From assembly GCA_964563195.1 (NCBI GenBank), contig CAZLWN010000001.1, forward strand, positions 21,834 through 85,833: a DNA stretch of 64,000 nucleotides, written 5' to 3'. The notes beneath the pieces are model-generated. The model saw nothing but the letters and a program-made list of their open reading frames with translations, searched no databases and had not been told where the DNA came from. The position numbers were made by a program, and so were the translations under genes. Source of the DNA: an uncultured Undibacter sp. Lineage in GTDB: Bacteria > Pseudomonadota > Alphaproteobacteria > Rhizobiales > Xanthobacteraceae. This document shows positions 21,789 through 51,764 of the stretch, one piece after another (position 1 is the first letter of the stretch; every line of letters starts with the position of its first letter).

Positions 21789-22139
21789 GTGGCCAGCAGC
21801 AAAAAGCCCAACGCTGGAAAAGTTCACATCAGCATCAACGAAAAAGTAGCGAAGTCAATTTGCGCCATCGGCTACTGGGACACGTGGAATGGGCACAAGT
21901 CCATCCCCAACACGTCGGATAAGCTCGCAGATGTTATCCCGCTCAACTCGAATGAGGCCGCCCGATGCCTTAAATACGCCTATTCCTCGGCTCGCCCACT
22001 GATGACGATCAGAGAGCAGGTCGATTGGCTTGATTCGAGATACAACTTTTCATGCCGCGACTGCTGGCGAGACAACAATCATTCCCAGATTTTTGCGCGA
22101 CAGCGCGTGGTGTCGCCTATGTTCAGACGGCCTTTTTGA
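21789..22139 (+). CDS. Hypothetical protein (coding status uncertain)
   Basis: 116-aa ORF with a GTG start in an AT-richer gap. No recognisable motif. Confidence 0.2.
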   Translation: MASSKKPNAGKVHISINEKVAKSICAIGYWDTWNGHKSIPNTSDKLADVIPLNSNEAARCLKYAYSSARPLMTIREQVDWLDSRYNFSCRDCWRDNNHSQIFARQRVVSPMFRRPF

Positions 22140-22491
22140 CCGGACAATTTAAGCCTACGTAAACGCATTTGACGCCGCCAACTTTCTGATTACGCGGTTT
22201 TAAGATACCGGCCGGTCGCCGCAACTATTCATGTCGCAGCTTTTTGCCTATCTCGGAATAACCGAGCAACCATTGCCCAATAGCCGCGCCAACGAAGGCG
22301 GCGCAGCGCTAGTTTCGAGAATACGACGGTTTTTCCGTTCATCGATCGGTTGCCTGGAGGCGCCAAAATAGCCGCCAAGGTATCGCTGAATTTTTGCTAA
22401 TGAACAATGACATCCTGCCATCAAAGAGGGAGATCAGAACGCTTCGCGAGCAATATGTTGGCAGCAATGAACGGACCAACCGACTTCCGGC

Positions 22492-23388
22492 TCAAATGGG
22501 TTGTCGAAAATGGCCGTTTTCGACCACGTTTTTCGCGGTTTTTTCGCGCGCGCCTCCATTTCCGCCCGCGCGCGGCGTGAGCACATACTCGCGTAACGCA
22601 AATCGCTCGGGCTTTTGGCCTTGCGCGTCACGTAAGTCGTAGCCGAGTTGGCCGATCAAGGCACTCAGCTTGTCCACAGTTCCACCCAGGGCAACGATCT
22701 CACGCGGATGTACGCTCAGAAAAATAACCGGGCAATGTCGGGACAGCAGTGCTCGGGCACCGCACAAAACACCGATTTCGGCCCCCTCGACATCGATCTT
22801 GATGACGTCTGGGACGATGCCGTACTCCGCGCAGTACGAATCCAGCGACACTTGCCGACAACTTGTTTCGTGATACCCCTGCGCATCTTTTGGGGTTGCA
22901 ATTGTATTCATTCCAGTCGGCTGATTCATCTCAAAGAAACGCACCGCCTCAAGTGGCTCGGCTCCCACAAGAAATGGAACAACCTCTATATTTGCGAAAC
23001 CATTGAGAGTTGCATGTTTCAATAACAGTTCCCGGTTGGCCAGCGCTGGCTCGAAGCAGATAACACGGCCCACCGCGCTCACGACCGATGCAACCGGAAT
23101 CGCCACGAGGCCGATATGCGCGCCGACATCGAGCACACATGTTTTTCCACGACACGCCTCGACGCATTTTTTAAATGCGCCGTTGTGGCCACCGCCCCAA
23201 TTCTCGAAATTACTAAAAGCAAAAAAGCCATCAAGACGAAAGGGGCCATATGGACCAATTCGCGTCGTGACGGTTCGGCTAAGGCCGAACGCCCGATATA
23301 ACCACCGGTACAACCGCCCTAAAGCGAGCCACATGGGCTTGAGCGACTGAAGTGGGCCATGACGCAACCAGCGTAAAAGTGCAATCAT
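22492..23388 (-). CDS. FkbM family methyltransferase (third copy)
   Basis: VLDVGAHIGLVAIP, IKIDVEGAEIGVL. Confidence 0.8.
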   Translation of the reverse strand: MIALLRWLRHGPLQSLKPMWLALGRLYRWLYRAFGLSRTVTTRIGPYGPFRLDGFFAFSNFENWGGGHNGAFKKCVEACRGKTCVLDVGAHIGLVAIPVASVVSAVGRVICFEPALANRELLLKHATLNGFANIEVVPFLVGAEPLEAVRFFEMNQPTGMNTIATPKDAQGYHETSCRQVSLDSYCAEYGIVPDVIKIDVEGAEIGVLCGARALLSRHCPVIFLSVHPREIVALGGTVDKLSALIGQLGYDLRDAQGQKPERFALREYVLTPRAGGNGGAREKTAKNVVENGHFRQPI

Positions 23389-23551
23389 AATTGTAGCTCG
23401 CTTTTGAACTTTGTCGGTCCTCGCCCCGCAACTGGCGGGTCAAAGCAGCCGCACAAATGGTTTCTGTGATAGCAGCAAACGGACCAGCCAAGCCGCTGGA
23501 GCCGCCCGTATTAAACGCCATAAGAGCATTTGCGGCAGCGTCACAGTTTGT

Positions 23552-23809
23552 TCAATCAATTTCGTCGCGCTCCAGGCGCGCACTGACATCATAATAGAAA
23601 ACCACGAGAGCGATCCCGCCGAATTGCACGGTCTTGAAAGCATAGACGCCCCCGCCCGGGGTTGATTCAGAAAAATCGAGATTGCGGATCTTGCCCCCGA
23701 TAAGATATCGCATCGCTTCCCGCATCAGTAGATGATTGATATCAAGCGGCATTGTCTCGGAGTAAGCCCCATTGAACTGGTATGCGACCACATCACTTCT
23801 CATAACCAA
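23552..23809 (-). CDS. Hypothetical small protein (coding status uncertain)
   Basis: 85-aa ORF in an AT-rich gap. No motif recognised. Confidence 0.2.
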   Translation of the reverse strand: MVMRSDVVAYQFNGAYSETMPLDINHLLMREAMRYLIGGKIRNLDFSESTPGGGVYAFKTVQFGGIALVVFYYDVSARLERDEID

Positions 23810-23881
23810 AAGTCATGCTACTCAAATACGCGCTCATTTTTTATCGCAATAATGAACACATTTTTTTCGGCCAGCGCAAAC

Positions 23882-23920
23882 ATGTGCAATCAAAAAACAA
23901 AATGCTGTGTAATTGCACAT
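23882..23920. repeat. Perfect 9-bp inverted repeat ATGTGCAAT-N21-ATTGCACAT just downstream of the 23940 stop
   Basis: Read directly from the sequence. A T-run follows on the plus strand only. Confidence 0.3.
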
Positions 23921-23939
23921 TTTTTCAGGCGGAAACTGG

Positions 23940-25448
23940 CTAGGTGGTGGAGGATTGAGTGTCAGGGGGCATCCTTAGCAATTTTGCGAGAGCATCAAGA
24001 TGGCCGTCGATATCTTCGTCCGGTGAGGTCGTTTCAATTTCAGCATCCACGAGCGCACCCAACCGGCGATCGTATTCGGCAGCGTCTGCGAATATCGGTT
24101 GATCGAGCGCTTGCAAGATAATTTCACCAAGCTTTCCTGGCGCCTCAACAACAGGAGAAAGGCCAGCGACGGAATAGTAATTTTCGCCTAACAAAAGTAA
24201 AGGTCGCCCAAAGACGAGGGCTTCAAATCCCGTGGTGCCGTTGTCGGTAATGACCAATGCGGCATGTTGAATATATTGGAACGGGGAATCCAAGGGATCA
24301 ATCAACGTGACACCGGGATAACGACTAATATCTTTGTAAAACCGTGTCGGACGCCGGCCCTGGTTATTTCTGTGTTCGCGAACGAGCAGACGATAGCCGG
24401 CGGGAATGTTGGCACTAAGCCACGCAATAAGGTTTTTCTGCGAATGCCATTCCGGATGCTGAACGTTAATGGCGAGCTCAGGCTCTTTGTGCAGCGCTAT
24501 ATAAATGTATAGCTTAGTCGAAAGAGCGACCTCTTCAAGCTTAGAAAAGAATTGCTTCTGTCGCCATGCGAGGTAGTTCATGCGATAGACTTCCCACAGT
24601 CTGTTTAAAACCGGCTTGGGCGCTATTTCACGGATGCCACGCAGGTTACGCGATAGTTTCGAGGCACCCTGAAGCGCAAGATTGGCATGCCTCTTTAAAA
24701 ACCTCGCTTTATTCTCCCAATTTCGCTGGATATAAGCGACCGTTCGTGGCCGTATTCGAAATTCCGTCAGAAAGTGCCTGGCCTTGTCGCTCGGCACCTC
24801 TCCGGAAGCGATCTTTCGCTGGCAAATTTCCCGCGCCGCTACATTCATCATCAATCGATCGTCGGTCCAAAATCCGTGATCCGAAAGGATCTTGGACGGA
24901 CGGTTCGCAAAATATGGAATTTTTCTTGCCCTACAGACCAAAAAGAGAACAATCGCTTCCATCGACGCGGTGTGGCCGCCGAGGATGAGATCGGGTTTAA
25001 ACCGATCTAGTAGCTGATCCGAAAAATGAAAAAGTCGCTCGACATAGCGCGCCGGCTCCTCATTATCAGTAAGCACTTTGCGCGACAGACCTATTTCCGG
25101 CCAGTAGTAGAATTCGCGTCCATAACCTCGGCCGACCACGCGCTCGCCAGCCAGGACGATTCGATTGATTGGCAAACGTGAAATTTTTTCGCATTCGCGG
25201 ACTAAATTGCGGACACGGGCCGACGCGACAGGGTCCGCCTCCCAGACGCCGGGCCGACCCATGTCAGGCTGGCAAAAAAAGTCGGCTTGATCGTCGAGCA
25301 ATTCTGCATTCAAACCGGGGCCCGAGGGCGGAACCATTATACCGACGCGCCACCCGAAGCGTTCTTTGCCGCGCGTAATCAGTGGACCCAAAATGTGTTG
25401 GCGGCGCACGTGCGGGAGAAAGAGGACTCTCAGGTTTTCGAGTGTCAT
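23940..25448 (-). CDS. Capsule polysaccharide biosynthesis family protein (KpsS/KpsC-like, Capsule_synth-type), candidate CMP-ulosonate transferase
   Basis: LHKEPELAINVQHPEW...LLVREHRNN...HAALVITDNGTTGFEALVFGRPLLLLG matches the layout of KpsS/KpsC/LpsZ-type proteins as I recall it. The ATG at 25448 overlaps the transketolase stop (ATGA). Confidence 0.5.
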   Translation of the reverse strand: MTLENLRVLFLPHVRRQHILGPLITRGKERFGWRVGIMVPPSGPGLNAELLDDQADFFCQPDMGRPGVWEADPVASARVRNLVRECEKISRLPINRIVLAGERVVGRGYGREFYYWPEIGLSRKVLTDNEEPARYVERLFHFSDQLLDRFKPDLILGGHTASMEAIVLFLVCRARKIPYFANRPSKILSDHGFWTDDRLMMNVAAREICQRKIASGEVPSDKARHFLTEFRIRPRTVAYIQRNWENKARFLKRHANLALQGASKLSRNLRGIREIAPKPVLNRLWEVYRMNYLAWRQKQFFSKLEEVALSTKLYIYIALHKEPELAINVQHPEWHSQKNLIAWLSANIPAGYRLLVREHRNNQGRRPTRFYKDISRYPGVTLIDPLDSPFQYIQHAALVITDNGTTGFEALVFGRPLLLLGENYYSVAGLSPVVEAPGKLGEIILQALDQPIFADAAEYDRRLGALVDAEIETTSPDEDIDGHLDALAKLLRMPPDTQSSTT

Positions 25449-27361
25449 GCGTGTTGCCCGTTGAGCAACTTCTCCGCAGCGCCAAGTATGCCGTCGGCGT
25501 CTAGACCGTGATGGTGAAGCACCTCGTCGTTTCGACCGCATGCCGGAATTTCAGTGAGGCCGAGCAAACGTACCGGCAGCCGGTGGTCCGTAACCGCGAG
25601 CCGAGCCGCAACGCGTTCGCCCTGCCCACCCCACACAAAGTGATTGTCGAGACAAAGCGCAGCCTTGCATCCCGCCACAGATGAAGCGAGCCATGTGTCG
25701 TCAAAACGGGCCAGCCACGGCAAATTGACGATGCGTAAACTTAGGCCCTGAGCAGCCGCATTCTTTCCGGCTTTCCACGCCTCCGCTAGTAGAATGGGCC
25801 CCGACGCAATTATGACGACATCGTCTCCGTCCGCGAGAACTACTCCTCTGCCCTGCTCAAGTCGATAATCAGTCGGTAACGTGAACGGAACATCGACCGG
25901 GATCGAGACCAGACGCAAATAAGTGCTGCCAGAATTATCGCGGACAGCCCATTGTACCGCCATGTTCACTTCCGCCTCACAACAAGGCTCAATCATCGTG
26001 GTGTTCGGTAATGTACCCATGAGTGCAATATCACGTACCGACTGGTGCGAATGCCCTGGCCCTCCCGGCAGCACTCCGGCGAGTGAGCCAACATAAATAA
26101 TCTTTGTCTTCTCAGAATCCGCATTGTAAATCTGTTCATTGGCGCGCGGCGTCAGAAAACACGCAAACGAGTGGACGACGGGAAGGAATCCTGACAATGC
26201 AAGCCCGCTGGCCTGGGAAACCATGTCCTGCTCGGCAATGCCGCATTCGATGAAGCGATCCGGGAAACGTTCTGAAAACGGAATCAGGCCGGTATCGAGC
26301 ACAAGATCGGCGTCAAGCGCGACAAGATTTGGCGTACGATTCGCCTCGGCAAGCAGCGCCTCGCCATAGGCCCGAACCAGGCGCTGCGGGTTGGACGGAG
26401 CGATAACGCCAATCGGCCGACTCTCGGTGACAAGCTGTGGGTCATTGACGCCGAGCTCGGCACATTGCGCACGCGCGGAATCAAGCAATTCGGATATGCC
26501 ACGGCGATAGTCATCGTCACTTGGTGCGCCGGAGTGATACTTGTACCAGCGGCCGTCCATCGCAGGATGTTCCATGAAGGAAATGCCGCGCCCCTTGATG
26601 GTGTCGGCGAGAATGATACTTGGTAGCGCACGCTCGAGCCGAGCATGCTTAACGGCCTCGGCCACGGCGCGCATATCGTGGCCATCGCAATGGAAAACAT
26701 TCCAGCCGAACGCAGCGAATTTTGCTTCAAGATCACCCAAGTCGGCGGTGGCGCTGACCAAGGTGTCCGACTGCACTTTGTTGTGGTCGACAATAACCGT
26801 GATCTCGGAAAGCCCGAGCCGCACCGCGGATCCAAGCGATTCCCAGAATTGTCCCTCCTGCAACTCGCCGTCGCCGGTCATCACGAAAATCTGTTGGCGC
26901 CGGCCCCTCAGACGATTGGCCTTTGCCATGCCCTTGGCCTTGGAAATGCCCATGCCGAGCGAGCCGGTATTGGCTTCGATATAGGGCGTGTGAATGTCCG
27001 GATGGCCGGGCAGACCGCCCAGCCGGCGCAGCTGCATCACCTGATCTTCCGGCAGCAGGCCAAGCGCGATCATGACCGCGTAAAGTCCAGGCGCATCATG
27101 CCCCTTGGAGGAGAAGAAAATGTCCCTCTCCTCGTCGCGGCTCGGTCCGGCCGGTAATCGCATTTCATTAAGGAAAAGCCAGCTCACGATGTCGAGGCTG
27201 GAAAAACTCGAACCGATATGCCCCGAGCCGGCCGCCATGATCATCGATAGCGTGTTGATGCGTGCAAGGGTCGCAAACAATGCGGCGCGCGCGGTTAACG
27301 CCGCGTTGAGTTTGCGCGCGCGATCGAATTCGGCGCGCGGAACGAAGGTCAAAGTCGACAT
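25445..27361 (-). CDS. Transketolase-family ThDP enzyme (N- and C-terminal halves fused in one polypeptide)
   Basis: AAGSGHIGSSFSSLDIV, GSLGMGISKAKG and VMTGDGELQEGQ (ThDP motif GDG...E), followed by pyrimidine-binding and C-terminal domains. I used the ATG at 27361. The track start at 27394 is a TTG. Confidence 0.85.
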   Translation of the reverse strand: MSTLTFVPRAEFDRARKLNAALTARAALFATLARINTLSMIMAAGSGHIGSSFSSLDIVSWLFLNEMRLPAGPSRDEERDIFFSSKGHDAPGLYAVMIALGLLPEDQVMQLRRLGGLPGHPDIHTPYIEANTGSLGMGISKAKGMAKANRLRGRRQQIFVMTGDGELQEGQFWESLGSAVRLGLSEITVIVDHNKVQSDTLVSATADLGDLEAKFAAFGWNVFHCDGHDMRAVAEAVKHARLERALPSIILADTIKGRGISFMEHPAMDGRWYKYHSGAPSDDDYRRGISELLDSARAQCAELGVNDPQLVTESRPIGVIAPSNPQRLVRAYGEALLAEANRTPNLVALDADLVLDTGLIPFSERFPDRFIECGIAEQDMVSQASGLALSGFLPVVHSFACFLTPRANEQIYNADSEKTKIIYVGSLAGVLPGGPGHSHQSVRDIALMGTLPNTTMIEPCCEAEVNMAVQWAVRDNSGSTYLRLVSIPVDVPFTLPTDYRLEQGRGVVLADGDDVVIIASGPILLAEAWKAGKNAAAQGLSLRIVNLPWLARFDDTWLASSVAGCKAALCLDNHFVWGGQGERVAARLAVTDHRLPVRLLGLTEIPACGRNDEVLHHHGLDADGILGAAEKLLNGQHA

Positions 27362-27430
27362 GCGTATTTGGCCGGCGCCTGTGGTGATAATCAAATAGGC
27401 AAAGCTTCAGGACATTTTTTTGCTTCAATA

Positions 27431-28375
27431 CTACTCAGCGGCGACATGCGCCTTCGCATCTGAGGCGATGTATTTCATATAGTCGCATTCTTTCAGCGCT
27501 TTGATCATCTGCTCCTGTTCCGCCTTGTCCAGAGGCCGATAATATCCGGTCATGTGGGGCTCACAGATTCCGCGCAGCGACAACAGGTATTTTTCCTCGG
27601 CGCCGGTGAGGAAATTGTCCTTCTTCGAGGTCTTCGGCATCATGCCGAGGAATTTCATCAAATTGCGATGGCGCGCCAGCGCCTGCTTGTGATCGCCAGC
27701 TTGATAGAGATTGTAGATTTCCTGGAGCGGCTCCGGCAGCGCGCTTGCTATGCTCGACGTCGTTGCCGGCGTGCCCATGGCGAGCGTCGCATAGAACTGG
27801 TTGGCGACCGCCGTCACAACTTGGAAATCCGGCTCCATCAGACCCAGAACTTTGAGCTGATCGACCGTATGCGAGCTTGAGAATTTGACCCCAGTCACAT
27901 TCGGATGCCCTTTTAGACCGGCAACCAGTTCCGGCGTGATATGCTGGCACCAATTCGCGCTTGTATAGAGCCAGAGCGGCTTCGAGGCGTGGTCGGCCAG
28001 ATGCCGATACATCCAGTCGATCCGGTCGAGGCTCATCACGGGCTGATAGGGCATGACGTGGTAGGCGTCGAACTGCAACTCGCGAGTCGCATCCATGAAG
28101 TTCTTCATGTCTTCGAGCGCGAAAAAACCGGACCCCAGCACCAATGGCTTGCGCCCGGCATTTGTCGCACAGATCGTGTGCGCAACCGTCAAGCGCTTCT
28201 TGAACGTAAGGTCCATGTCCTCGCTACCGGTGCCCAGCGCCCAGAAGCCTCCAACATTTTTGGCGGTTAAATAGTTGATCAGCCGTTTGAGGCCTTCAAC
28301 ATCGATGGAGCCGTCGGCATTGACGGGCGTCACGACGACGGGGACGACCCCTTTTAGTGCGCGTGTCTCGATCAT
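27431..28375 (-). CDS. DapA/N-acetylneuraminate-lyase family class I (Schiff-base) pyruvate aldolase
   Basis: GVVPVVVTPVNADGSIDVEGL, ALGTGSEDMDL, and VTGVKFSS (Lys position). 314 aa. ATGA overlap upstream. Confidence 0.8.
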   Translation of the reverse strand: MIETRALKGVVPVVVTPVNADGSIDVEGLKRLINYLTAKNVGGFWALGTGSEDMDLTFKKRLTVAHTICATNAGRKPLVLGSGFFALEDMKNFMDATRELQFDAYHVMPYQPVMSLDRIDWMYRHLADHASKPLWLYTSANWCQHITPELVAGLKGHPNVTGVKFSSSHTVDQLKVLGLMEPDFQVVTAVANQFYATLAMGTPATTSSIASALPEPLQEIYNLYQAGDHKQALARHRNLMKFLGMMPKTSKKDNFLTGAEEKYLLSLRGICEPHMTGYYRPLDKAEQEQMIKALKECDYMKYIASDAKAHVAAE

Positions 28376-29109
28376 GCCTTTGCTTCCTTGCTTCGGCTTC
28401 GGGCGAGATGCTGAAAATAGGCCTCCACCAACACCACATCGGCTGCTTCGTCTATATCTGAAGAATGGTAGCGATCCATTACCAGCGGAATTTGGCGGCG
28501 CGATATCAGTTTACCGGCACGTAGGAAGTAGTCCCGGCGCGCCGCATAGATTGAGGCATTATAGAGATAGAACGGCTCGACAGCCGCGCTTTCCGGCTCA
28601 TCCCGCACATAGGGTTCAAGCACCCCGCCGCGAATGGCTTTTAGGATCGGATCGCGCTTCTTGAACGGTCCCTTCACGCTGGCAAGCGTGTCCAGGTCGG
28701 AATCCCATAAGCGCTGGATTGCTTCGTCTATATGCGCAGAATCGCGAATGGGACAAGTCGGCTGCAACAATACGACAATATCATAACGTTGCGCCCTCGC
28801 CTCTTCCATGTACAACAATGCGTGACGCACCGTGTCGATATTACGAACTTCGTCGCCGCTGAGTTCGGCCGGTCGCTTGAAGGGCACCGGGGCGCCGTAA
28901 CGCTTGGCGATAGCGATGATCTCGTCATCATCTGAGGTTACCAGCCAATCGGTCAGCGCCCGGGAGCCAGCCGCGGCCATGATTGTATGCGCAATGAGCG
29001 GATGGCCTCCGACCGGCAGGATGTTTTTCCGAGGCAGGCGCTTGGAACCGCCACGGGCGGGAATGACCCCGAGGGAACGGGGCAGCCTGTGGGAACGCTC
29101 AGCGGGCAT
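28372..29109 (-). CDS. Acylneuraminate-type cytidylyltransferase (NeuA/LegF/PseF/KdsB-like CMP-sugar synthetase)
   Basis: GVIPARGGSKRLPRKNILPVGGHPLIAHTI, 245 aa. Confidence 0.85.
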   Translation of the reverse strand: MPAERSHRLPRSLGVIPARGGSKRLPRKNILPVGGHPLIAHTIMAAAGSRALTDWLVTSDDDEIIAIAKRYGAPVPFKRPAELSGDEVRNIDTVRHALLYMEEARAQRYDIVVLLQPTCPIRDSAHIDEAIQRLWDSDLDTLASVKGPFKKRDPILKAIRGGVLEPYVRDEPESAAVEPFYLYNASIYAARRDYFLRAGKLISRRQIPLVMDRYHSSDIDEAADVVLVEAYFQHLARSRSKEAKA

Positions 29110-30052
29110 CTTCAGTCGTCATCGAATTGGCGCGCGCGAGAAGCGAAATGGTGTCGGAGATTCCGCTGGCCATGTTGCCCGTGAACGTAAAGCCCGCTTT
29201 GTCTATGCGTGTGTTTTTGACGTCGTAGGACAGTTGATTCATGATTTTGGTGTCGACAAATTCGACTTGAAGGTCGCGGACATGCACGCGAATGTGATCG
29301 ACGACTGTGCGCACGCTCGCGTTGCAGGTCACGACGTTGTAGATGCGGCCATCGAAGAGCCCCCGTTCGATGAAGAATGCGATCGCACGCACGGCGTCCG
29401 AAAGGTTGAGATACGGGCGCCGCTGTTCGTAGGCGGTGCGCCAAACTGTCAGCGGCTGACGCATCACCGCCTGCCAGCAAAACTTGTTAACCGCCGTGTG
29501 GAAACGCATTCCCGGCGACGTGCCGAATATCGTTCCGAACCGGCAGCTTACGGCCCGCAGGCCATTACGGGCGGCGGTGAGCACTACCTCCTCCTCCCGT
29601 AGTTTTGTCTCAGCGTAGGGGCTTTGCGGCTTCAGGTCGCCTGGGGGACATTCTTCGTCTACGATTTCGGCCTGCGAGCCATAGACGCTGGTCGAGGACA
29701 GATGGATCAGCGGCGAGCCCGCTTCAGCGCAGGCCGCGACCACACAGCGTGTGGCCTCGAGATTATTTCGCTCGACCGCTTCCTTGTTTTCGAAACTCGA
29801 TGTCGCGTCGGTAATCGCAGCAAGATGAATAACCGCTGCCGCCCCGTCGACCAGTGAGCGCAGGCTCATGCGCGTGACGTCGTCTTCGACGAAACGATAA
29901 CTCGCGTTTTTCGGCAACGCGAACAACGACGGATAGCGTTGCGATGACATGTTGTCGATCATCACGATGTCGAGGCCACGAAATTTATCCGGTAACGTGC
30001 GGATCAAACGCGACCCAATGTGACCAAGCGCGCCGGTGATGACGATTTTCAT
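29099..30052 (-). CDS. NAD-dependent epimerase/dehydratase/reductase (extended SDR)
   Basis: MKIVITGALGHIGS, SPYAETK (YxxxK). The ATG at 30052 overlaps the upstream stop (ATGA). Confidence 0.8.
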   Translation of the reverse strand: MKIVITGALGHIGSRLIRTLPDKFRGLDIVMIDNMSSQRYPSLFALPKNASYRFVEDDVTRMSLRSLVDGAAAVIHLAAITDATSSFENKEAVERNNLEATRCVVAACAEAGSPLIHLSSTSVYGSQAEIVDEECPPGDLKPQSPYAETKLREEEVVLTAARNGLRAVSCRFGTIFGTSPGMRFHTAVNKFCWQAVMRQPLTVWRTAYEQRRPYLNLSDAVRAIAFFIERGLFDGRIYNVVTCNASVRTVVDHIRVHVRDLQVEFVDTKIMNQLSYDVKNTRIDKAGFTFTGNMASGISDTISLLARANSMTTEDAR

Positions 30053-30513
30053 CGCGAGGCGGCCGGCTGCTTCCGAAAAGCCAGGAATTCCCGGTAGTCG
30101 CGGATATAGTCGTGCTCTTCGTAAGGTCGATCGCACAGCACCATGAGCACGTTATCGCTATCGAGGTAGCGCTGCTCGGCCCAAATGCCGTTCGGCACCA
30201 AAAGACCGCGATCTATCGCATCCAGCATGTATGTCTGCCTCGAAAGGCCGTCCGAGCACGTCACCTCGCAGCGCCCGTGCGTACAGACCATGAATTGATT
30301 GCAGCGCTTGTGCGCATGCCGGCCGCGCTGGACGTTTGAGGCCGCGCGCACCGTGAACACCCGCGCGATCGGAAATGGCACGGCGCCATCCAGGGCCTGC
30401 AGGACGACAAGTTCTCCATTGGCACTTGTCTGTCGCGGCAGATCTATAGATTTAGCGACGGAATTATCCACGACAGGAATTATTGCCGCAGGATGCGCCG
30501 AATGCCATTGCAC
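30049..30513 (-). CDS. fdtA: FdtA/QdtA/WxcM-like cupin: dTDP-4-keto-6-deoxyhexose 3,4-ketoisomerase
   Basis: ANGELVVLQALDGAVPFPIARVF...RGRHAHKRCNQFMVCTHGRCEV. An alternative GTG start lies at 30471. Confidence 0.75.
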   Translation of the reverse strand: MQWHSAHPAAIIPVVDNSVAKSIDLPRQTSANGELVVLQALDGAVPFPIARVFTVRAASNVQRGRHAHKRCNQFMVCTHGRCEVTCSDGLSRQTYMLDAIDRGLLVPNGIWAEQRYLDSDNVLMVLCDRPYEEHDYIRDYREFLAFRKQPAASR

Positions 30514-31595
30514 ATCATGTCCATCTGTGCATCGTCGACGGAAAAAGCGGACGGCAGATTGATCCCTCGCTCCGATACATCGTACGCAGCCGGATGACGT
30601 GGGCGCATCTCGGCCTCACGCGAACCGTAAGCCGGCAAGAAGCTCAATGGATAGAAGAACGGCCGGCTCGGCAGGCTTAGTTCGGCGAGTCCAGCCATCG
30701 CTTTATCTTTCGTCATCTTGTGGGACCGACCAAACACGAGTGCCGTGTTCCACGCACCATTCAACCCATTTCGCGGCTCGGGGTTAAGCGAAAGGTCGGC
30801 AATGTCAAACAAACGTTGCTTGTATCCGTTAAGAATCTTCCGCTTGTATGCAACAAGTTCGTCAAGCCGCTGAAACTGCGCGTAGCCAAGCGCGGCTTGC
30901 AGGTTGAAGGGCATGTATTTGAACGTCACCTCGGTATTGAAATACGTCCCCGGCGCACGGCCGTGATCCCGCAGAAACTTGCAGCGCTCAAAAAGCGCGT
31001 CGTCGTCGATGAGCAACATTCCGCCCTCACCGGTCGTCAAAGTCTTAGTGCGGTGGAAGCTGAAGGTCGATGCGATGCCGAAACTGCCGGCTCTTTTGCT
31101 GTTTGCAACGGACCCCAACGCTTCGGCCGCGTCCTCGATCAGTGCGATGTTGCGACGCTCACAAAGCTCTGCGATTTCGTCCCAATCCGGCATATTGCCA
31201 TAGAGATCAACGACGATCACCGCCTTGGTGCGGTTCGTGATCTCGCGCTCGATGGTTTCGGCGGTCAAGCACCAATGGACAGGATCAATATCCGCGAACA
31301 CAGGGTTCGCTCGCTGATAGGTAATACAGGCGGCGGAACCGATCCACGTGCATTCCGGGGCGATAACTTCGTCGCCCTCGCCGATTTCCAGGCCGCCCAG
31401 GAGAAGATGCAGCGCCGTCGTACAATTCGGCGTCATCAATCCGTGTTTTCGATTATGATAACTGGCAAATTCCGCTTCGAACTTTTCCACATAGTAATAT
31501 GCCTGCTTGCCATACCATCCGTTCCGCAAGGCATCGAGCACGATCTTTTCCTCGTGCTCGGTGATCGAGGGGCCGGCCATATAAATTTCGGTCAT
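30480..31595 (-). CDS. DegT/DnrJ/EryC1/StrS family PLP sugar aminotransferase
   Basis: 371 aa: TPNCTTALHLLL, FSFHRTKTLTTGEGG (Lys). Confidence 0.9.
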   Translation of the reverse strand: MTEIYMAGPSITEHEEKIVLDALRNGWYGKQAYYYVEKFEAEFASYHNRKHGLMTPNCTTALHLLLGGLEIGEGDEVIAPECTWIGSAACITYQRANPVFADIDPVHWCLTAETIEREITNRTKAVIVVDLYGNMPDWDEIAELCERRNIALIEDAAEALGSVANSKRAGSFGIASTFSFHRTKTLTTGEGGMLLIDDDALFERCKFLRDHGRAPGTYFNTEVTFKYMPFNLQAALGYAQFQRLDELVAYKRKILNGYKQRLFDIADLSLNPEPRNGLNGAWNTALVFGRSHKMTKDKAMAGLAELSLPSRPFFYPLSFLPAYGSREAEMRPRHPAAYDVSERGINLPSAFSVDDAQMDMMCNGIRRILRQ

Positions 31596-31655
31596 TCTTT
31601 CACACTGACGCTTCGGACTGCTAGTTTTGCGGCCTAGATTGTCACGCTTGTCCGT

Positions 31656-32336
31656 TCATCGCATCGGTTTTGCGGGCACGCCGACGGCTATTGTGTTGTC
31701 GGGGATATCGGAGACGACAACTGATCCTGCACCTATGATGACATCGCGCCCGATTTTTATGCGCTGACGAACGGTAGCTCCAGCTCCAATCCACGAGTTC
31801 GCACCAACATGAACGCGGCCGCACAATATCGCGCCGGGACCAATCTCCACTCCTTCGCCGAGTACACAATCATGCTCTACAAGACTGCGCGTGTTTATAA
31901 GGCACTGACGCCCAATGCTGACGTCGTTGTGGACGAGCGCTTGTGCCATTACTTGTAATCCGGCGCCCAATTGCGCGCTTGCACAGATATAGGCGCTGGA
32001 ATCAGCAAACGACACGGGAAAAAGCCCTGCTCTAACAAAGACGTCATGCAGGCGGCATCGGGTATCGCCCGTGGGGTTGCCGATTGCAACTATGAAACCA
32101 AGCGTCGAGTTATTCTCATTTTTTAACCACTCTTCGAGAGCTCCAAAACCGTCCAACAGCGGCACCTCCGGAAAAGGCGATTTCAGACCCGGCGTGTCAT
32201 CGACGAATGCAACAATTTTGCAGCCGAACTCGGATAGGATAAAGTGATTTACCCGAGCCTGATCGGCTGCCCCCCACATCACAATTCGTTGGCGTTCTGG
32301 CACAACGTTTCGCCAGCGCTCAAAATTGACGGTCAT
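31656..32336 (-). CDS. NeuD/PglD family left-handed beta-helix sugar N/O-acetyltransferase
   Basis: Rossmann-like N-terminal half (IVMWGAADQARV) followed by hexapeptide repeats and a C-terminal VGVPAKPM. Confidence 0.8.
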   Translation of the reverse strand: MTVNFERWRNVVPERQRIVMWGAADQARVNHFILSEFGCKIVAFVDDTPGLKSPFPEVPLLDGFGALEEWLKNENNSTLGFIVAIGNPTGDTRCRLHDVFVRAGLFPVSFADSSAYICASAQLGAGLQVMAQALVHNDVSIGRQCLINTRSLVEHDCVLGEGVEIGPGAILCGRVHVGANSWIGAGATVRQRIKIGRDVIIGAGSVVVSDIPDNTIAVGVPAKPMR

Positions 32337-33091
32337 TCTATTTCACTCGAATTGATTTGGTTTATAGCTCGAAAAATAAGATTTGAAAAATAAGACAAGC
32401 GCATTCGCTCTGGCAACGCATCCATTGGTGGCTGCATTTCACGCCCGAAAACTTTTGATAGAAATGCGGCTTCGTAAACGAGCGTGTAATCCATACTCTG
32501 CATCGCTGCGACAAACTCGATGCGGTTAAAAAACCAAACAGGAATCGAATCCTCGTAATATTGCTGTGCAGTTACGAAAGATTCCATATCTCCAATTGGC
32601 AATTCCGACATGACGAGGGATTTTGGACGATCGCTCGTAACCTGGACGAGCAATTCTTTCCAATCTTCGATGTAATGAAGGGTGCTACCAAAATGCACAA
32701 TATCTATGTCGGCAAGATGTGGAACCCGATTATGAAACGACAGCCAATTTTGGCTGCGTAGCCGCTTCCGCCCTTCCCCACAAATCTCATCTCTTTCGAC
32801 AATATGGCCCTCAATCTCCACGTTCGGCAGCGCCGCAGCGACAGCAAGCATAACCGCACCAAGCCCTCCGCCCACATCTACAATACGCAACGGACGCCTA
32901 GGATTTGCTAGCATTGAAGCAGCAACGGCCAGGGGATAGTCTCTTGCAGGCGGCGCTCCTTGGGCAAGTTGTCTATCGAGTTGTTCTCTAAGCCGATTAA
33001 GCCATCGGGCACCGTCGAACACATCGGAAGAGCCGACGACCTCGCTGAAGCTCCGAAAGACTCCGCTCCATATCGACGTCGGCATGGCCAT
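32333..33091 (-). CDS. SAM methyltransferase, LIC12133/TIGR04325-like family (family name from memory)
   Basis: N-terminal IWSGVFRSFSEV signature, then IVDVGGGLGAV (motif I). AT-richer than its neighbours. Confidence 0.55.
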   Translation of the reverse strand: MAMPTSIWSGVFRSFSEVVGSSDVFDGARWLNRLREQLDRQLAQGAPPARDYPLAVAASMLANPRRPLRIVDVGGGLGAVMLAVAAALPNVEIEGHIVERDEICGEGRKRLRSQNWLSFHNRVPHLADIDIVHFGSTLHYIEDWKELLVQVTSDRPKSLVMSELPIGDMESFVTAQQYYEDSIPVWFFNRIEFVAAMQSMDYTLVYEAAFLSKVFGREMQPPMDALPERMRLSYFSNLIFRAINQINSSEIE

Positions 33092-33101
33092 CTACCGCGC
33101 C

Positions 33102-34328
33102 TTATATCAATGCCACGCGTGGCACGTAGGTAAGCCAATGGCCTCCGGCAGAAACAAAGGAGCCCTCTTTGGCCATGATTTCGGAACTATGGTTCCAAGC
33201 AAATAGCACGGCAACATCGGGGTATCGAGCGACGAACTCTGCGTACGGTCGAACCATTATGTGTGCGCCTGGGCTGAATTTTCCTTGTTTGATCGGCGTC
33301 GTATCAGAAATGAATTCGATCAATTCCGAGCCGATGCTGCAGTAGTTCAGAACAGTCGTACTTTTCGAAGTGGCTCCGTAACCAACAACCCGCTTACCTT
33401 CGCGTCGCAAGATTTCAAGCTGGGCACCCAGTTGGTCACGACTTTTTTCGCAATTCACGCGGAAGCGCTGATAAGCTTCCGGATTGCCGAGACCCAGTGC
33501 TGTTTCCGTTACGGCCAGCGCGCTGACCGCTCTCGCCACGGGCCGCTCGCCTTTGCGCGCGAGAGCGTAACGCATCGATCCGCCATGGGTTGGCTGCGAT
33601 ACGACATCGATAACTTCCAAGCCGTGCGGTTCAAATGCGGACCTCACCGCCTGCAGCGAGAAAATAAACACGTGCTCATCGTAAATTTGGTCGTAGGACG
33701 TTTTCTGGATCATGTCGCCCAGGTAAGGCTCCTCGAATACCAGCACGCCGCGGGGTTTAAGAAGGAGCGCGACGCCTTCGGCCACGTCGTGCAGATCAGG
33801 GATGTGGCACATGACGTTCGCCGCTAGAATAGCATCGGCCGGGCCATTGCTTGCGGCGAGTGCGTTGGCAGTCTGCTCCCCGAAGAACCCGACGAAGCTT
33901 TTGACCCCGTATCGTTCAGCTTCCGCTGCGACATTCGCAGAAGGCTCGACCCCAATGTGTCGAATTCCGTTCTTTGCAAAATGTTCCAGCATCGCCCCAT
34001 CGTTGCTGCCGATTTCCACCACGAATGGATCTGGCCCATCCAGATAGTTCGAACGGACCCATTGAGCGTAGCGCTCGAAATGTTCGACCATACGTTTCGA
34101 TGTCCGCGTGAAAAAAGCATAGTTTTCATGAAACATGCGCTGCGGTTCGGGCTGCTCCACGATTTGAAAAGTGCCGCAGGTCTCGCAGAATGCCGGCGCA
34201 AGTTCGAAAAAATACTCATTTGGGAATTGTTCAGGACAAAGAAAACCGTTCGCAATCGGCATGCGGCCAAAAGACATAAAGGCATGGATCGAACGCTTGC
34301 AATTGCGGCATTTAGCCATCGTAACCAT
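33102..34328 (-). CDS. NDP-hexose C-methyltransferase-type enzyme (TylCIII-like; zinc-ribbon plus class I MTase plus C-terminal domain)
   Basis: KCRNCKRSIHAFMSFGRMPIANGF...CETCGTFQ (4-Cys), VVEIGSNDGAML. The start is the ATG at 34328 or 34319, just past the upstream stop. Confidence 0.75.
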   Translation of the reverse strand: MVTMAKCRNCKRSIHAFMSFGRMPIANGFLCPEQFPNEYFFELAPAFCETCGTFQIVEQPEPQRMFHENYAFFTRTSKRMVEHFERYAQWVRSNYLDGPDPFVVEIGSNDGAMLEHFAKNGIRHIGVEPSANVAAEAERYGVKSFVGFFGEQTANALAASNGPADAILAANVMCHIPDLHDVAEGVALLLKPRGVLVFEEPYLGDMIQKTSYDQIYDEHVFIFSLQAVRSAFEPHGLEVIDVVSQPTHGGSMRYALARKGERPVARAVSALAVTETALGLGNPEAYQRFRVNCEKSRDQLGAQLEILRREGKRVVGYGATSKSTTVLNYCSIGSELIEFISDTTPIKQGKFSPGAHIMVRPYAEFVARYPDVAVLFAWNHSSEIMAKEGSFVSAGGHWLTYVPRVALI

Positions 34329-35301
34329 CGCTTTCTTTTCTAATTTCCGAAGCGGTGGTCCGCCCGCGCCCACGTTGAATGGCCTCAACTACCGTCGAGG
34401 GCAGCACGTCGCGCAAGAAGCTTAAAGTATCCGTATATAGCTTCAGCCCCCACATTTCCCACAAGTACGCAATGCAGATTGGAACGAAATAGGGTTTCCT
34501 CCAGGCCGGAACAATTCGAGAATGCAAGATCGCCAAAGAAAGCGTCGCGACATATTCGAGATTTCCAAATCGCATCATTTGTCTCTTCAATACAAGCGGG
34601 TCATGAGGGCGGCGCTCAACAAGCGACTGACGCGCCTTCTGTTTTGCGAACAATATCTCATCTACTTGAACAAGGCGCCCGCTCAGCATCATCAAGCAAA
34701 CAAATTGGCGCTCGTTGACAAAAACTTCCGGAAGCGATCGCAGGCAGTCTCGAAAGACATCGGTACGAATCAGCCCGTGAATAAAATTGTTTGTCTTTAG
34801 GGGCCGCATGCGGCGGCCACGCTTGGTAACAACGGCAATTGCATTTTTAAGGGGATCACGTCGCTGCGGCCAATCTTCCGGTGGAATGCGAACCGTCTTG
34901 GCTTCGTCGCCATCGGGGTAAATTGTGCGGTAAGCACACATGGCAGCAACAGCACTTGGCGGACGGCGCAAAGCGTCAACCATGCAGCTAAGAAAACGAT
35001 CGACCCAAATATCGTCCTGACTGGCGTAAAGAAAATATTTTCCACGCGCTAAATCGACTACGCGGTGCAAATTCGCGTGCGCCCCAAGATTTCTGGCATT
35101 ACGTGAGAAGTGAATACGTGAATCGCGGGCAGCGTATCTCTCGCACAGCTCAGGCGTTTGATCCGAGGAGCAATCATCGGAGATGACCAGCTCGAAATCC
35201 TTAAAATCCTGCGCCAAAAGACTATCGATCGCACGCTCGACCGTCGAAGCGCCATTGTAAACAGGCAATCCAATAGTCACCAAAGGTGCTTGATCAATCA
35301 T
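34312..35301 (-). CDS. Glycosyltransferase family 2
   Basis: VTIGLPVYNGASTVERAIDSLLAQ, VISDDCSSD, ASQDD. Confidence 0.8.
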   Translation of the reverse strand: MIDQAPLVTIGLPVYNGASTVERAIDSLLAQDFKDFELVISDDCSSDQTPELCERYAARDSRIHFSRNARNLGAHANLHRVVDLARGKYFLYASQDDIWVDRFLSCMVDALRRPPSAVAAMCAYRTIYPDGDEAKTVRIPPEDWPQRRDPLKNAIAVVTKRGRRMRPLKTNNFIHGLIRTDVFRDCLRSLPEVFVNERQFVCLMMLSGRLVQVDEILFAKQKARQSLVERRPHDPLVLKRQMMRFGNLEYVATLSLAILHSRIVPAWRKPYFVPICIAYLWEMWGLKLYTDTLSFLRDVLPSTVVEAIQRGRGRTTASEIRKESDGYDG

Positions 35302-35381
35302 TGCAACCTCATTTAGATGCGTATCGACTTTTTCATTACTCAGCGGGCGATGCTGTCGGGGTCAATTTGGAAGTCAATGAA

Positions 35382-36293: not shown

Positions 36294-36847
36294 AAATTAC
36301 GGCCACTAACGTTGTCGGCGCCGTCACTATTGAGCCGGACACATTCAAAGACAACCGCGGCAGCTTTTTCGAATCCTTCCGGATTGAGCAATACGCTGAT
36401 GCCGGCATTCGAGGTCCATTTGTGCAGGACAATTGCTCAATTTCCCGTCAAGGCGTCCTGCGCGGCTTGCACTACCAAGTCAACCACCCGCAAGGCCACC
36501 TGATCACGCTCACGCAGGGTTCGATCTTTGATGTTGGCGTGGATCTTCGACGTCATTCGCCGACTTTTGGCCGCGTCGTCACGACAACACTTACGTCCGA
36601 TCCGCCAAAACAGATCTTTCTGCCTGCGGGCGTGGCGCACGGCTTCTGTGTCCTGACAGATGCTGCAACGATCTGGTACAAGTGCACTGAAACCTATCAC
36701 GCCGGCGATGAAACTGGATTGCTATGGTCGGATCCTGATCTTGGGATTGAATGGCCTTTGCGAGATCCCATTATCAGTCCACGTGACGCTTCCTATCCGT
36801 GCCTAAAGGACATAGCCGCTGGCCGGCTACCACGAGTCGGACCTTAA
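36290..36847 (+). CDS. rfbC: dTDP-4-dehydrorhamnose 3,5-epimerase
   Basis: FKDNRGSFFESF, RGLHYQ, GVAHGF. ATGA coupling to rfbA. Confidence 0.95.
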   Translation: MKITATNVVGAVTIEPDTFKDNRGSFFESFRIEQYADAGIRGPFVQDNCSISRQGVLRGLHYQVNHPQGHLITLTQGSIFDVGVDLRRHSPTFGRVVTTTLTSDPPKQIFLPAGVAHGFCVLTDAATIWYKCTETYHAGDETGLLWSDPDLGIEWPLRDPIISPRDASYPCLKDIAAGRLPRVGP

Positions 36848-39001: not shown

Positions 39002-39026
39002 AAAAACATTTGACGAGCTAGCGGGT

Positions 39027-40939: not shown

Positions 40940-40979
40940 GTGGTTCTCCGGCTTACGAAATTACAGATGTTTCTGGCTT

Positions 40980-45572: not shown

Positions 45573-45584
45573 ATCAAGTTTCGT

Positions 45585-50551: not shown

Positions 50552-50578
50552 TGATGCCAATTGAGAAATAGATCCCGC

Positions 50579-51637: not shown

Positions 51638-51764
51638 ATTATCTGACTGAAATGTATATTTACTGGCCTTTATCGACGAATAAAAAAAGCGAGCAATAGT
51701 GGATCGTTACCATCTTTGAATCTCCCGCGATCGCGGCGCCCGACCCGAAGCCGACATTTTATGT

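Follow-up and report, generated by a model that had tools for sequence, protein, structure and literature searches.

A widespread bacterial gene set for a candidate CMP-activated ulosonic acid pathway with a NeuB-family synthase, an unusual class I aldolase and a transketolase

In the locus studied here, a class I aldolase and a transketolase are encoded beside a putative CMP-ulosonic acid synthetase, which raised the question of what the two enzymes contribute to a glycan locus. The window, i.e., the whole stretch of DNA that was analysed, comprises 64,000 nucleotides of an uncultured Undibacter sp. (contig CAZLWN010000001.1). An earlier note had proposed a CMP-activated ulosonic acid pathway that includes both enzymes, and this proposal was supported. 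With a probability of roughly 0.5, the flagged region holds the distal half of a widespread bacterial pathway for a CMP-activated 2-keto-3-deoxy (ulosonic) acid. Full-text literature searches combining these enzyme names returned nothing relevant, and the pathway itself appears to be new to the literature.

Gene content of the locus

The ORF reading of the window showed five ORFs in a row on the minus strand at 23940-30052, and Pfam-type domain matches agreed with the gene number and domain assignments proposed earlier. The features of the locus were as follows.

23940-25448, minus strand: GT-B protein ('GT502' family), 502 aa; weak Capsule_synth match (PF05159, 27.6 bits, residues 345-462 only)
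25445-27361, minus strand: single-chain transketolase, 638 aa from ATG or 649 aa from TTG 27394; N, pyrimidine-binding and C domains (Pfam)
27431-28375, minus strand: DHDPS/NAL-family class I aldolase, 314 aa (PF00701, 5.7e-26)
28372-29109, minus strand: cytidylyltransferase of clade A (putative CMP-ulosonic acid synthetase), 245 aa (CTP_transf_3, 7.4e-19)
29099-30052, minus strand: extended SDR, 317 aa from ATG 30052 (PF01370, 2.8e-34)
30049-38000: inserted dTDP-sugar gene block (FdtA, DegT, NeuD-type acetyltransferase, two methyltransferases, GT2, RmlA/RmlC-like, RmlB)
39027-39851, minus strand: short-chain SDR (adh_short), conserved partner of NeuB1
39848-40939, minus strand: NeuB1, a NeuB-family PEP-dependent synthase of a separate subfamily (PF03102 and SAF)

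ATGA overlaps had been claimed at 25445, 28372 and 30049, and all three were read from the sequence. The ATGA at 25448-25445 joins the transketolase and the 502-aa gene, that at 28375-28372 joins the cytidylyltransferase and the aldolase, and that at 30052-30049 is the FdtA stop overlapping the start of the extended SDR, which ties the SDR to its upstream gene. The SDR and cytidylyltransferase genes overlap by 11 nt (ATG at 29109, SDR stop ending at 29099), and the aldolase and transketolase genes are separated by 36 nt (TTG start) or 69 nt (ATG start).

Conservation of the gene set

Co-occurrence was counted in 39 aldolase-related loci from at least seven phyla, with NeuB1 scored within 10 kb of the aldolase. 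The conserved set consisted of a clade A cytidylyltransferase directly upstream of the aldolase, a GT502-family protein (the family or distant members of it in most loci) and usually a transketolase. The cytidylyltransferase was upstream of the aldolase in 34 loci (33 directly, and L022 at 2.4 kb with an intervening gene), the transketolase was present in 28, a short SDR in 26 and an aldehyde dehydrogenase (ALDH) in 21, and a KdsC-type phosphatase often accompanied the set. The usual gene order was NusG ... NeuB, SDR, ALDH, cytidylyltransferase A, aldolase, GT502, transketolase, GT502. The joint recurrence of four of the five flagged genes, in dozens of loci from different phyla, goes far beyond what chance would give. 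Conservation extended well outside this genome.

The earlier cassette of five genes was reduced to these four. The extended SDR, which had been counted in the set, occurred in only 6 of the 39 loci and always with FdtA, DegT or C-methyltransferase genes; it therefore belongs to the neighbouring dTDP-sugar pathway and, being also ATGA-coupled to FdtA, was rejected as a member of the module. From comparative genomics, the predicted functional set is NeuB1, the short SDR, cytidylyltransferase A, the aldolase, the transketolase and the GT-B protein.

The aldolase

A search with the aldolase produced 253 homologues at E < 1e-10, of which the 120 listed were each at least 54% identical. The catalytic Lys and Tyr, named earlier as a point to check, were present: Lys164 (Schiff base), Tyr137 and Tyr110 were invariant in the subfamily. 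Trp142 was also invariant, at the position held by Arg138 in E. coli DapA. The aldolase scored 79 against a dapA cut-off of 206 and 64 against a nanA cut-off of 281, and it was roughly equidistant from the structures of DapA, NanA, YagE and KDG aldolase. The proposed membership of the DapA/NanA family of class I aldolases was confirmed by PF00701, within a distinct, tight subfamily that is neither DapA nor NanA.

Both enzyme families are familiar chiefly from central or catabolic metabolism, and the public annotation of the aldolase is 4-hydroxy-tetrahydrodipicolinate synthase. The aldolase could accordingly be a NanA-like catabolic or salvage lyase or a DapA paralogue, and the transketolase a housekeeping enzyme, both placed here by chance. 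This is very improbable given the arrangement kept across phyla in glycan loci, the translational coupling to the cytidylyltransferase, the scores far under both aldolase cut-offs with the DapA Arg138 position changed, and a transketolase under its equivalog cut-off and without most phosphate-site residues.

NeuB1 and the short SDR

The NeuB1 gene lies about 10 kb upstream of the flagged genes in the same locus. NeuB1, which represents a very widespread subfamily, reached neither the NeuB nor the PseI equivalog cut-off, and its best 120 homologues were all at least 65% identical and came from Alphaproteobacteria and Chloroflexota among others (65-70% identity across phyla). Of the 39 loci, 23 have it no more than 10 kb from the aldolase, and two more have it farther off on the same contig (P0206, P0214). 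Roughly one locus in three (e.g., L039, L044, L045) showed no NeuB1 at up to 10 kb from the aldolase. Most of these loci lie on short contigs, or the gene may be farther off as in the window, but the aldolase may also work there in a route independent of NeuB.

The short SDR follows NeuB1 directly or one gene later in most of the 26 loci carrying it, and likewise in L051, L055 and L056. Its nearest families were the sugar-acid dehydrogenases KduD, gluconate 5-dehydrogenase and mannonate oxidoreductase, all below cut-off, and it is presumed to be a tail oxidoreductase. A KdsC-family phosphatase adjoining or near NeuB1 in related loci gave 106-121 bits to KdsC and 80-81 bits to Kdn-9-P phosphatase. 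Neither a KdsC-type phosphatase nor an aldehyde dehydrogenase was found in the window, so its pathway product would differ from that of most relatives.

The earlier note had the flagged genes bypass the NeuB/KdsA-type synthases: the transketolase would remodel an aldose, the aldolase would join it to pyruvate, and CMP activation and transfer by the last gene would follow. The cytidylyltransferase and aldolase are indeed ATGA-coupled and almost inseparable, coupling to a CMP synthetase would draw the aldol equilibrium toward synthesis, and some loci (L039, L045) combine the pair with a GT502 relative and lack a NeuB gene within 10 kb. However, NeuB1 can stand more than 10 kb from the set, as in the window and its closest relatives, and most loci have NeuB1 with the short SDR alongside the set, in direct contact with the cytidylyltransferase-aldolase pair in loci such as L025. 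In addition, one SDR counted in the cassette is another pathway's gene, the transketolase occurs in NeuB1 loci without an aldolase, and loci with both NeuB1 and aldolase in view usually have one cytidylyltransferase only. A self-sufficient bypass is therefore improbable; NeuB1 is likely the synthase, and the genes probably serve one single NeuB1-dependent pathway.

Cytidylyltransferase clades

The NeuA/KdsB-like assignment of the cytidylyltransferase held, with a full-length match of 110 bits to the V. cholerae CMP-Neu5Ac synthetase 6ifd in addition to CTP_transf_3; clade A thus resembles CMP-sialic acid synthetases. Clades A and B are only about 30% identical. The aldolase-free NeuB1 loci L049, L051-53 and L054 carried, in this order, NeuB, KdsC and/or SDR and/or ALDH, a clade B cytidylyltransferase, a transketolase and an unrelated GT, which indicates that cytidylyltransferase A and the aldolase together replace cytidylyltransferase B. 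Both clades occurred together only in L027 and L037, a pattern equally compatible with two separate sugars. The remaining aldolase loci with NeuB1 in view had at most one cytidylyltransferase, nearly always of clade A, so one enzyme there must be common to the NeuB1 product and the aldolase.

Two sugars could also be made in general, with NeuB1, SDR, ALDH and transketolase producing one CMP-sugar, the aldolase independently joining pyruvate to an available aldose to give a second ulosonic acid, and clade A activating both in most loci. The separate blocks of L027 and L037 (NeuB-SDR-(ALDH)-cytidylyltransferase B-(TK) and c24-cytidylyltransferase A-aldolase-c23) and the two or three GT502 paralogues of many loci fit this model, which we consider unlikely: one cytidylyltransferase would have to serve two acids in more than 20 loci, the aldolase-free loci have clade B instead, and no dedicated aldose-supply gene was visible.

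The transketolase

The transketolase matched human TKT with 239 bits and scored below the equivalog cut-off. The ThDP and His residues, also named earlier for checking, were present and conserved: the ThDP/metal motif, the cofactor-activating Glu and the four catalytic His were kept. S345 was changed to Asp, H416 to Leu and D424 to Pro, R318 was not conserved and the R474 region was altered; these positions follow an alignment to a human TKT sequence that was cross-checked only against the alignment of the search tool. On this mapping, most of the sugar-phosphate-binding residue set is predicted to be lost and the substrate channel altered.

The transketolase had been thought to feed the aldolase. 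The same subfamily, however, was found in the aldolase-free NeuB1 loci L049, L051 and L054, and the transketolase therefore belongs with NeuB rather than with the aldolase. It might act before NeuB1, cutting an unusual ketose to an aldose that NeuB1 joins to PEP, in parallel to the AHBA/rifamycin pathway, in which a dedicated transketolase feeds aminoDAHP synthase. This precedent, the linkage to NeuB1 with or without aldolase and the changed substrate channel, which implies a non-standard sugar, speak for such an order. We regard it as doubtful, since the transketolase is missing in about 30% of loci still carrying NeuB1 or aldolase, the NeuB1 identity across phyla suggests a common rather than exotic substrate, and the KdsC-type phosphatase points to a NeuB1 substrate that carries a phosphate, whereas this transketolase has lost most phosphate-binding residues.

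The GT502 protein

The AlphaFold model of the 502-aa protein (pLDDT 88) showed a GT-B fold, with UDP-GlcNAc 2-epimerases and GT-B transferases as best structural matches. The KpsS/C assignment proposed earlier was weak: KpsC matched at E = 0.005 over residues 354-431 and was absent from the top 50 structural matches. The GT502 family travels with cytidylyltransferase A and the aldolase and was absent from the aldolase-free loci, where the transferases were unrelated to it; it is presumed to be the transferase for the CMP-activated acid.

Proposed pathway

We infer that the aldolase most likely modifies the NeuB product at its 2-keto-3-deoxy head and that the dedicated cytidylyltransferase traps the result. 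NeuB1 would condense PEP with a sugar phosphate of central metabolism, and the KdsC-family phosphatase gene adjoining or near NeuB1 suggests a product with a terminal phosphate. After dephosphorylation, the short SDR would remodel the distal "tail", joined where present by the aldehyde dehydrogenase (absent from the window) and the transketolase; the substrate of the latter is probably unphosphorylated, since ketol-transfer chemistry is kept and most sugar-phosphate-binding residues are lost.

The aldolase was found with every presence-absence combination of ALDH and transketolase in the 39 loci, which fits action on a constant head rather than a variable tail, and the chance that it acts on the NeuB1-derived head group is about even. 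It would bind C2 of the free acid as a Schiff base and alter the "head" (C3/C4). The likeliest change would be C4 epimerisation through retro-aldol cleavage and re-addition, although this specific reaction is proposed only tentatively. AraD epimerises in this way; an epimerase role in the biosynthesis of sugar acids is not known for any class I aldolase. The ATGA-coupled cytidylyltransferase A would then trap the edited sugar selectively and irreversibly as the CMP ester; sialic acid aldolase and CMP-sialic acid synthetase are a standard one-pot pair in which an unfavourable aldol equilibrium is pulled. Finally, the GT502-family protein would pass the sugar to the glycan.

In the window, the dTDP-sugar block stands between NeuB1 with its short SDR on one side and the cytidylyltransferase-aldolase pair on the other, and the same insertion was found at the same place in a Ferrovibrio locus (L003/L008).

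Organization of the glycan locus

The window was found to be a single, very long glycan locus with nearly all genes on the minus strand. The earlier note had picked out five of these genes as a cassette for an unusual ulosonic acid, in which a transketolase would remodel an aldose, a pyruvate aldolase would extend it and the product would be CMP-activated and transferred, bypassing NeuB/KdsA-type synthases. The features of the locus were as follows.

57834-58349, NusG-like gene at the head of the locus
49520-57751, complete-looking pseudaminic acid gene set with its own NeuB (NeuB#2)
44892-46388, homologues of ComA (phosphosulfolactate synthase) and ComB (phosphosulfolactate phosphatase)
39848-40939, NeuB1, the second NeuB-family synthase of the window
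39027-39851, short SDR, following NeuB1
dTDP-sugar block: RmlB, RmlA/RmlC-like, C-methyltransferase, methyltransferases, acetyltransferase, two DegT and FdtA genes
29099-30052, minus strand, extended SDR
28372-29109, minus strand, cytidylyltransferase
27431-28375, minus strand, DapA/NAL-type aldolase
25445-27361, minus strand, transketolase
23940-25448, minus strand, 502-aa GT-B protein (family GT502)
after these: methyltransferases, AsnB-type amidotransferases and GT4 enzymes
also in the locus: ABC exporter

The flagged genes were five consecutive ORFs on the minus strand (23940-30136). Searches with Pfam and NCBIfam bore out the domains assigned to them in the earlier note, namely those of an extended SDR, a CTP_transf_3 protein, a member of the DHDPS/NAL family and a transketolase of three domains; the match of the 502-aa protein to Capsule_synth was weak and confined to its C-terminal part. 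The three ATGA overlaps claimed were read from the sequence at 30052-30049, 28375-28372 and 25448-25445, the one at 30049 coupling the extended SDR to the FdtA gene upstream; the SDR/cytidylyltransferase overlap was 11 nt and the aldolase-transketolase spacing 36-69 nt. Scanning of 22000-41500 for promoters and terminators gave a number of sites not above the shuffled control, with no excess interrupting the region. A non-coding gap of 550 nt (23389-23939) after the 502-aa gene and before the next methyltransferase gene was the sole sizeable gap in that stretch of the locus. The FdtA ORF (30049-30513) encodes 154 aa from a GTG codon with a Pfam match over residues 21-147, and the 59 aa called in the public annotation of identical contigs is probably a gene-calling error.

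At the head of the locus, the NusG-like gene and an adjoining HTH-like gene occupied 57834-59003. The same pair also heads the related gene neighbourhoods L012, L013 and L018 (among L010-L018), which suggests antitermination-type control in common. An IS5-family transposase ORF (53355-54158; NF033581, 141 bits) lay within the pseudaminic acid set, flanked by the PseG/H fusion gene and a gene with a weak CTP_transf_3 match, and may disrupt or split that operon. The ComA and ComB homologues hint at a sulfolactate substituent on the glycan of the window.

Conservation of the genes around the aldolase

A scan of species-representative genomes gave 40 loci, 38 of them in the aldolase subfamily, and together with the metagenomic locus L006 a total of 39 related loci was compared. 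Nearly all scanned loci came from MAGs of Alphaproteobacteria, Desulfobacterota, Binatia, Nitrospinota, Myxococcota, Terriglobia and Candidatus Scalindua, and the single cultured isolate was Pseudodesulfovibrio pelocollis SB368, which carries locus L033.

Table. Genes found at the 39 loci related by the aldolase
Clade A cytidylyltransferase (~50-79% identical to that of the window) upstream of the aldolase: 34/39 (33 directly, L022 at 2.4 kb)
Transketolase: 28/39, in places split into N and C genes
Short SDR: 26/39
NeuB1 orthologue (48-69% identity) within 10 kb: 23/39, with 2 more farther off on the same contig
Aldehyde dehydrogenase: 21/39

A GT502-family protein was present in most of the 39 loci when distant members found by profile comparison were counted. 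The usual gene order was NusG ... NeuB, SDR, aldehyde dehydrogenase, cytidylyltransferase, aldolase, GT502, transketolase, GT502 and then sulfotransferases. The window followed this order except that the aldehyde dehydrogenase was missing and the dTDP-sugar block was inserted between the short SDR and the cytidylyltransferase, exactly as in the Ferrovibrio locus L003. Matches of the aldehyde dehydrogenase to solved structures were generic and uninformative. The DegT aminotransferase at 37904-39052 was considered as its stand-in in the window, by analogy with Kdo8N synthesis, and was rejected since its orthologues adjoin the C-methyltransferase in L009, L027 and L029. Insertion sequences interrupted locus L024, and in L048 a NeuB1-like gene lay beside IS elements with no other module genes found nearby; neither locus was informative.

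The extended SDR occurred in only 6 of the 39 loci, each time with FdtA, DegT or C-methyltransferase genes, and is therefore not a member of the module. Conservation of the proposed cassette outside this genome thus held for four genes and failed for the extended SDR: the five flagged genes are not a unit, and four of them belong to a conserved module that contains NeuB1.

NeuB1 and loci without the aldolase

NeuB1 matched PF03102 with 264 bits, carried a SAF domain and scored below the NeuB equivalog (301 against a cut-off of 400) and PseI (237 against 340). Its subfamily was very large, with at least 65% identity among the best 120 homologues, Alphaproteobacteria and Chloroflexota included. 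Several NeuB1 loci lacked the aldolase. L049 and L054 encoded NeuB, aldehyde dehydrogenase, cytidylyltransferase, transketolase and a GT-like gene; L051-53 encoded NeuB, KdsC-type phosphatase, SDR, cytidylyltransferase, transketolase and a Capsule_synth-like gene; L055 and L056 encoded NeuB, KdsC, SDR and, further on, aldehyde dehydrogenase. The phosphatases of these aldolase-free loci gave 106-121 bits to the KdsC model and 80-81 to the Kdn-9-P phosphatase model. For the window, the ORF at 42758-43279 was tried as the missing KdsC phosphatase and discarded, as no such similarity was found.

The transketolases of the aldolase-free loci were of the same subfamily (44-58% identity) with the same residue pattern, which places the transketolase with NeuB1. 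The co-occurrence data thus run counter to a transketolase that feeds the aldolase, and equally to a pyruvate-dependent bypass of NeuB, both of which the earlier note had proposed. The cytidylyltransferases of the aldolase-free loci (clade B) were 62-68% identical to each other and only ~30% identical to clade A, and the transferase-like proteins beside them were unrelated to GT502. On these grounds, the clade A cytidylyltransferase, the aldolase and GT502 form a variant that replaces clade B and its transferase. Both clades were present together only in L027 and L037.

Aldolase

The aldolase scored 91.3 bits against PF00701 (cut-off 22.1), which places it in the DHDPS/NAL class I superfamily. 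Within its subfamily the Schiff-base Lys164, the catalytic Tyr137 and Tyr110 were invariant, so that the catalytic Lys and Tyr are in place. Scores were far below the cut-offs for DapA (TIGR00674, 79 against 206) and NanA (NF003164, 64 against 281; TIGR00683, 46 against 382), so that it is not DapA; like the conservation of the set, this favours the view of the earlier note that something unusual is present here. It was about equidistant from all solved subfamilies (DapA, NanA, YagE and KDG aldolase). It belongs to a tight subfamily: a total of 253 homologues was found at E < 1e-10, annotated only as DapA/NanA family, of which the best 120 were at least 54% identical, and the closest came from Ferrovibrio and Kiloniellales MAGs.

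The aldolase shares with NanA and DapA the fold family, the Schiff-base Lys and the catalytic Tyr. However, it forms a separate subfamily with the motif GTGSED in place of GTTGE or GSTGE, and an invariant Trp142 at Tyr+5 takes the position of DapA Arg138, which binds aspartate semialdehyde. Unlike NanA and DapA, it is biosynthetic by context, its gene being coupled to that of the cytidylyltransferase.

Cytidylyltransferase and GT502 protein

The cytidylyltransferase matched PF02348 (CTP_transf_3) with 68.9 against a cut-off of 22.6, and aligned over its full length (residues 13-230, 110 bits) with the solved CMP-sialic acid synthetase 6ifd. It scored below PseF (123.5 against 205.7) and below the KdsB models (at most 62 against cut-offs of 155-281). 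A CDP-alditol or ketose-phosphate pathway, built from the SDR, the cytidylyltransferase and the transketolase, was rejected because the cytidylyltransferase is CMP-sialic-acid-synthetase-like throughout and the extended SDR goes with the dTDP-sugar genes.

For the 502-aa protein, the PF05159 match (27.6 against a cut-off of 20) covered only profile positions 147-272 of 310, and the KpsC match (E = 0.005) extended over 78 residues around the nucleotide-binding 'xxHP/R' strand. AlphaFold produced a confident two-Rossmann GT-B model (pLDDT 88). The top 50 Foldseek matches of this model were UDP-GlcNAc 2-epimerases and GT-B glycosyltransferases, indicating a generic GT-B fold, and KpsC was absent from them. 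The earlier description of this gene as KpsS/C-like is therefore tentative, its KpsC likeness being a weak match of ~80 residues. The protein resembles the beta-Kdo transferases KpsC/KpsS (GT107) and WbbB (GT99) in being of GT-B type and encoded beside a CMP-ulosonic acid synthetase, but only ~80-120 residues are alignable, and HKEPE and REHRxNxGRR are invariant motifs peculiar to this family. From the modelled fold and its genomic association with the clade A cytidylyltransferase and the aldolase, it is probably the transferase for the CMP-sugar.

Transketolase

The transketolase contained three domains in one chain (PF00456, 7.9e-36; PF02779, 3.7e-30; PF02780, 5.4e-16). It scored 426.9 bits against the cut-off of 488 for the transketolase equivalog NF004559 and was far below the cut-offs of the remaining TK and DXS models; the nearest solved structures were human TKT and the split-chain TK of Carboxydothermus. 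Residues were surveyed in 20 family members and three sequences from loci without the aldolase, with human TKT numbering. The ThDP/metal motif (GDG...N), the cofactor-activating Glu and the His residues H37, H77, H110 and H258 were kept in every sequence that covers them; the presence of the ThDP and His residues was a check that the earlier note had proposed. The N-terminal catalytic and cofactor residues were present in 16-18 of the 20, the remaining ORFs being cut short or without the N-terminal half, and the activating Glu, E366, was kept in all 20.

In canonical transketolases the phosphate of the substrate and the 2-hydroxyl of the acceptor are bound by R318, S345, H416, D424 and R474. 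In the present family S345 was replaced by Asp (20/20), H416 by Leu (18/20) and D424 by Pro (20/20), R318 was variable and the R474 region read 'RLVSIP'. Since catalytic residues are kept and substrate-phosphate and acceptor residues are replaced, we infer from the sequences that the enzyme retains ketol-transfer chemistry on a substrate other than an ordinary sugar phosphate. It shares with canonical transketolase (EC 2.2.1.1) the three-domain layout, ThDP/metal motif, activating Glu and four catalytic His, but is encoded in glycan loci beside NeuB1 and the cytidylyltransferase.

Two subtypes were discernible. Type I ('GSLAGV...GPGHSHQ') was found in the window and L051, and type II ('LH(Y/F)AGL...GPGKSHQ' with 'RAYG') in L049, L054, L037 and L026. 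Type II has a more basic substrate channel, with His, Lys and Arg at some substrate-binding positions, and in L049 and L054 it accompanies an aldehyde dehydrogenase without the short SDR.

Proposed pathway

NeuB1 would condense PEP with a central sugar phosphate to a phosphorylated ulosonic acid, as suggested by the phosphatase genes beside or close to it and by how highly NeuB1 itself is conserved. The short SDR, aldehyde dehydrogenase and transketolase were found in every combination, for which reason they are proposed to be optional tailoring enzymes of the distal end. The aldolase was compatible with all of these combinations and strictly tied to one clade of cytidylyltransferase and one family of transferase. 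This pattern fits an action on the 2-keto-3-deoxy head, the part that stays constant, after which the CMP-synthetase would trap the product. The most conservative proposal for this edit would be C4 epimerisation by retro-aldol cleavage and re-addition. Epimerisation of this kind has a precedent in AraD, an aldolase of another class, and the chemists' counterpart of the coupling is sialic acid aldolase used with a CMP-synthetase.

Taken jointly, the reading that the tail of the free acid is oxidised or shortened by the SDR and the aldehyde dehydrogenase together with a phosphate-independent transketolase, with the aldolase as head editor or C4 epimerase kinetically coupled to its own CMP-synthetase, is speculative and was given a probability of about 0.15. 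If it is true, ulosonic acid biosynthesis would gain its first transketolase and its first editor of the aldolase type, and the module could also represent a prokaryotic route to Dha-type sugars. More speculatively, relatives with the aldehyde dehydrogenase might form a 3-deoxy-2-ulosaric (Dha-like) acid, which would bear on the unsolved question of how Dha-type sugars arise. According to a 2012 review (PMC3355719), the activated form of Dha in plants was at that time still to be identified.

Comparison with known systems

No paper describing this combination of genes was found by full-text searches of the literature. To our knowledge there are few routes to the CMP-activated ulosonic acids (Kdo, sialic, legionaminic and pseudaminic acids), and neither a class I aldolase nor a transketolase takes part in any of them. 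The CMP-Kdn pathway of Bacteroides thetaiotaomicron consists of a NeuB-type Kdn-9-P synthase, a KdsC-family Kdn-9-P phosphatase and a CMP-Kdn synthetase. The present module resembles it in the NeuB-family synthase, the CTP_transf_3 cytidylyltransferase and, in related loci, the KdsC-family phosphatase, and neither needs nucleotide-sugar precursor enzymes. However, NeuB1 and the cytidylyltransferase each scored under all curated equivalog cut-offs, and the module adds the short SDR, the transketolase, the class I aldolase and, in relatives, the aldehyde dehydrogenase. In the Kdo8N pathway of Shewanella, KdnB oxidises C8 of Kdo and KdnA transaminates it. The likeness here is one of concept, in that a free ulosonic acid would be oxidised at its distal end and CMP-activated afterwards; the Kdo8N enzymes are an Fe-alcohol dehydrogenase and an aminotransferase, whereas the candidates here are the short SDR, aldehyde dehydrogenase and transketolase.

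The gene set spans Alphaproteobacteria, Desulfobacterota, Chloroflexota, Binatia, Nitrospinota, Myxococcota and anammox bacteria and is annotated only as "DapA", "transketolase" or "hypothetical", a systematic misannotation that work on the pathway would correct. Once worked out, it would add a new surface sugar of environmental bacteria, a transketolase whose substrates are sugar acids without phosphate, and a natural counterpart to the aldolase/CMP-synthetase couples that chemists build artificially.

Accessory genes in related loci

The glycan of the relatives probably carries sulfate, methyl or amide groups, as sulfotransferase, methyltransferase and AsnB-type genes lie near the module. 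PF13469 sulfotransferase genes occurred two or three in a row in L004/L010 (16100-20400), L025, L037 and L055, close to the module and mostly just downstream of it, and none were seen in the window; the glycan of the relatives that carry them is probably sulfated. At the usual position of the aldehyde dehydrogenase, L004/L010 (6695-9202) had genes for an acetyltransferase of the Antibiotic_NAT type and an AMP-binding ligase, together with an ORF of 80 aa that may encode a carrier protein. Among the aldolase loci, the two that diverge most, L042 (8848-9285) and L046 (12066-12494), had a small cupin (~145 aa) adjoining NeuB with a faint likeness to the mannose-6-phosphate isomerase cupin, which may hint at the NeuB substrate. 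Finally, L039 (4466-7484) had E1 alpha/beta-like ThDP genes and, after them, a gene that joins a lipoyl/biotin-type domain to a hexapeptide acyltransferase domain. These genes lay within a group of C-methyl amino-sugar genes on the upstream side of the cytidylyltransferase-aldolase pair, and could make a two-carbon branch or acyl unit.
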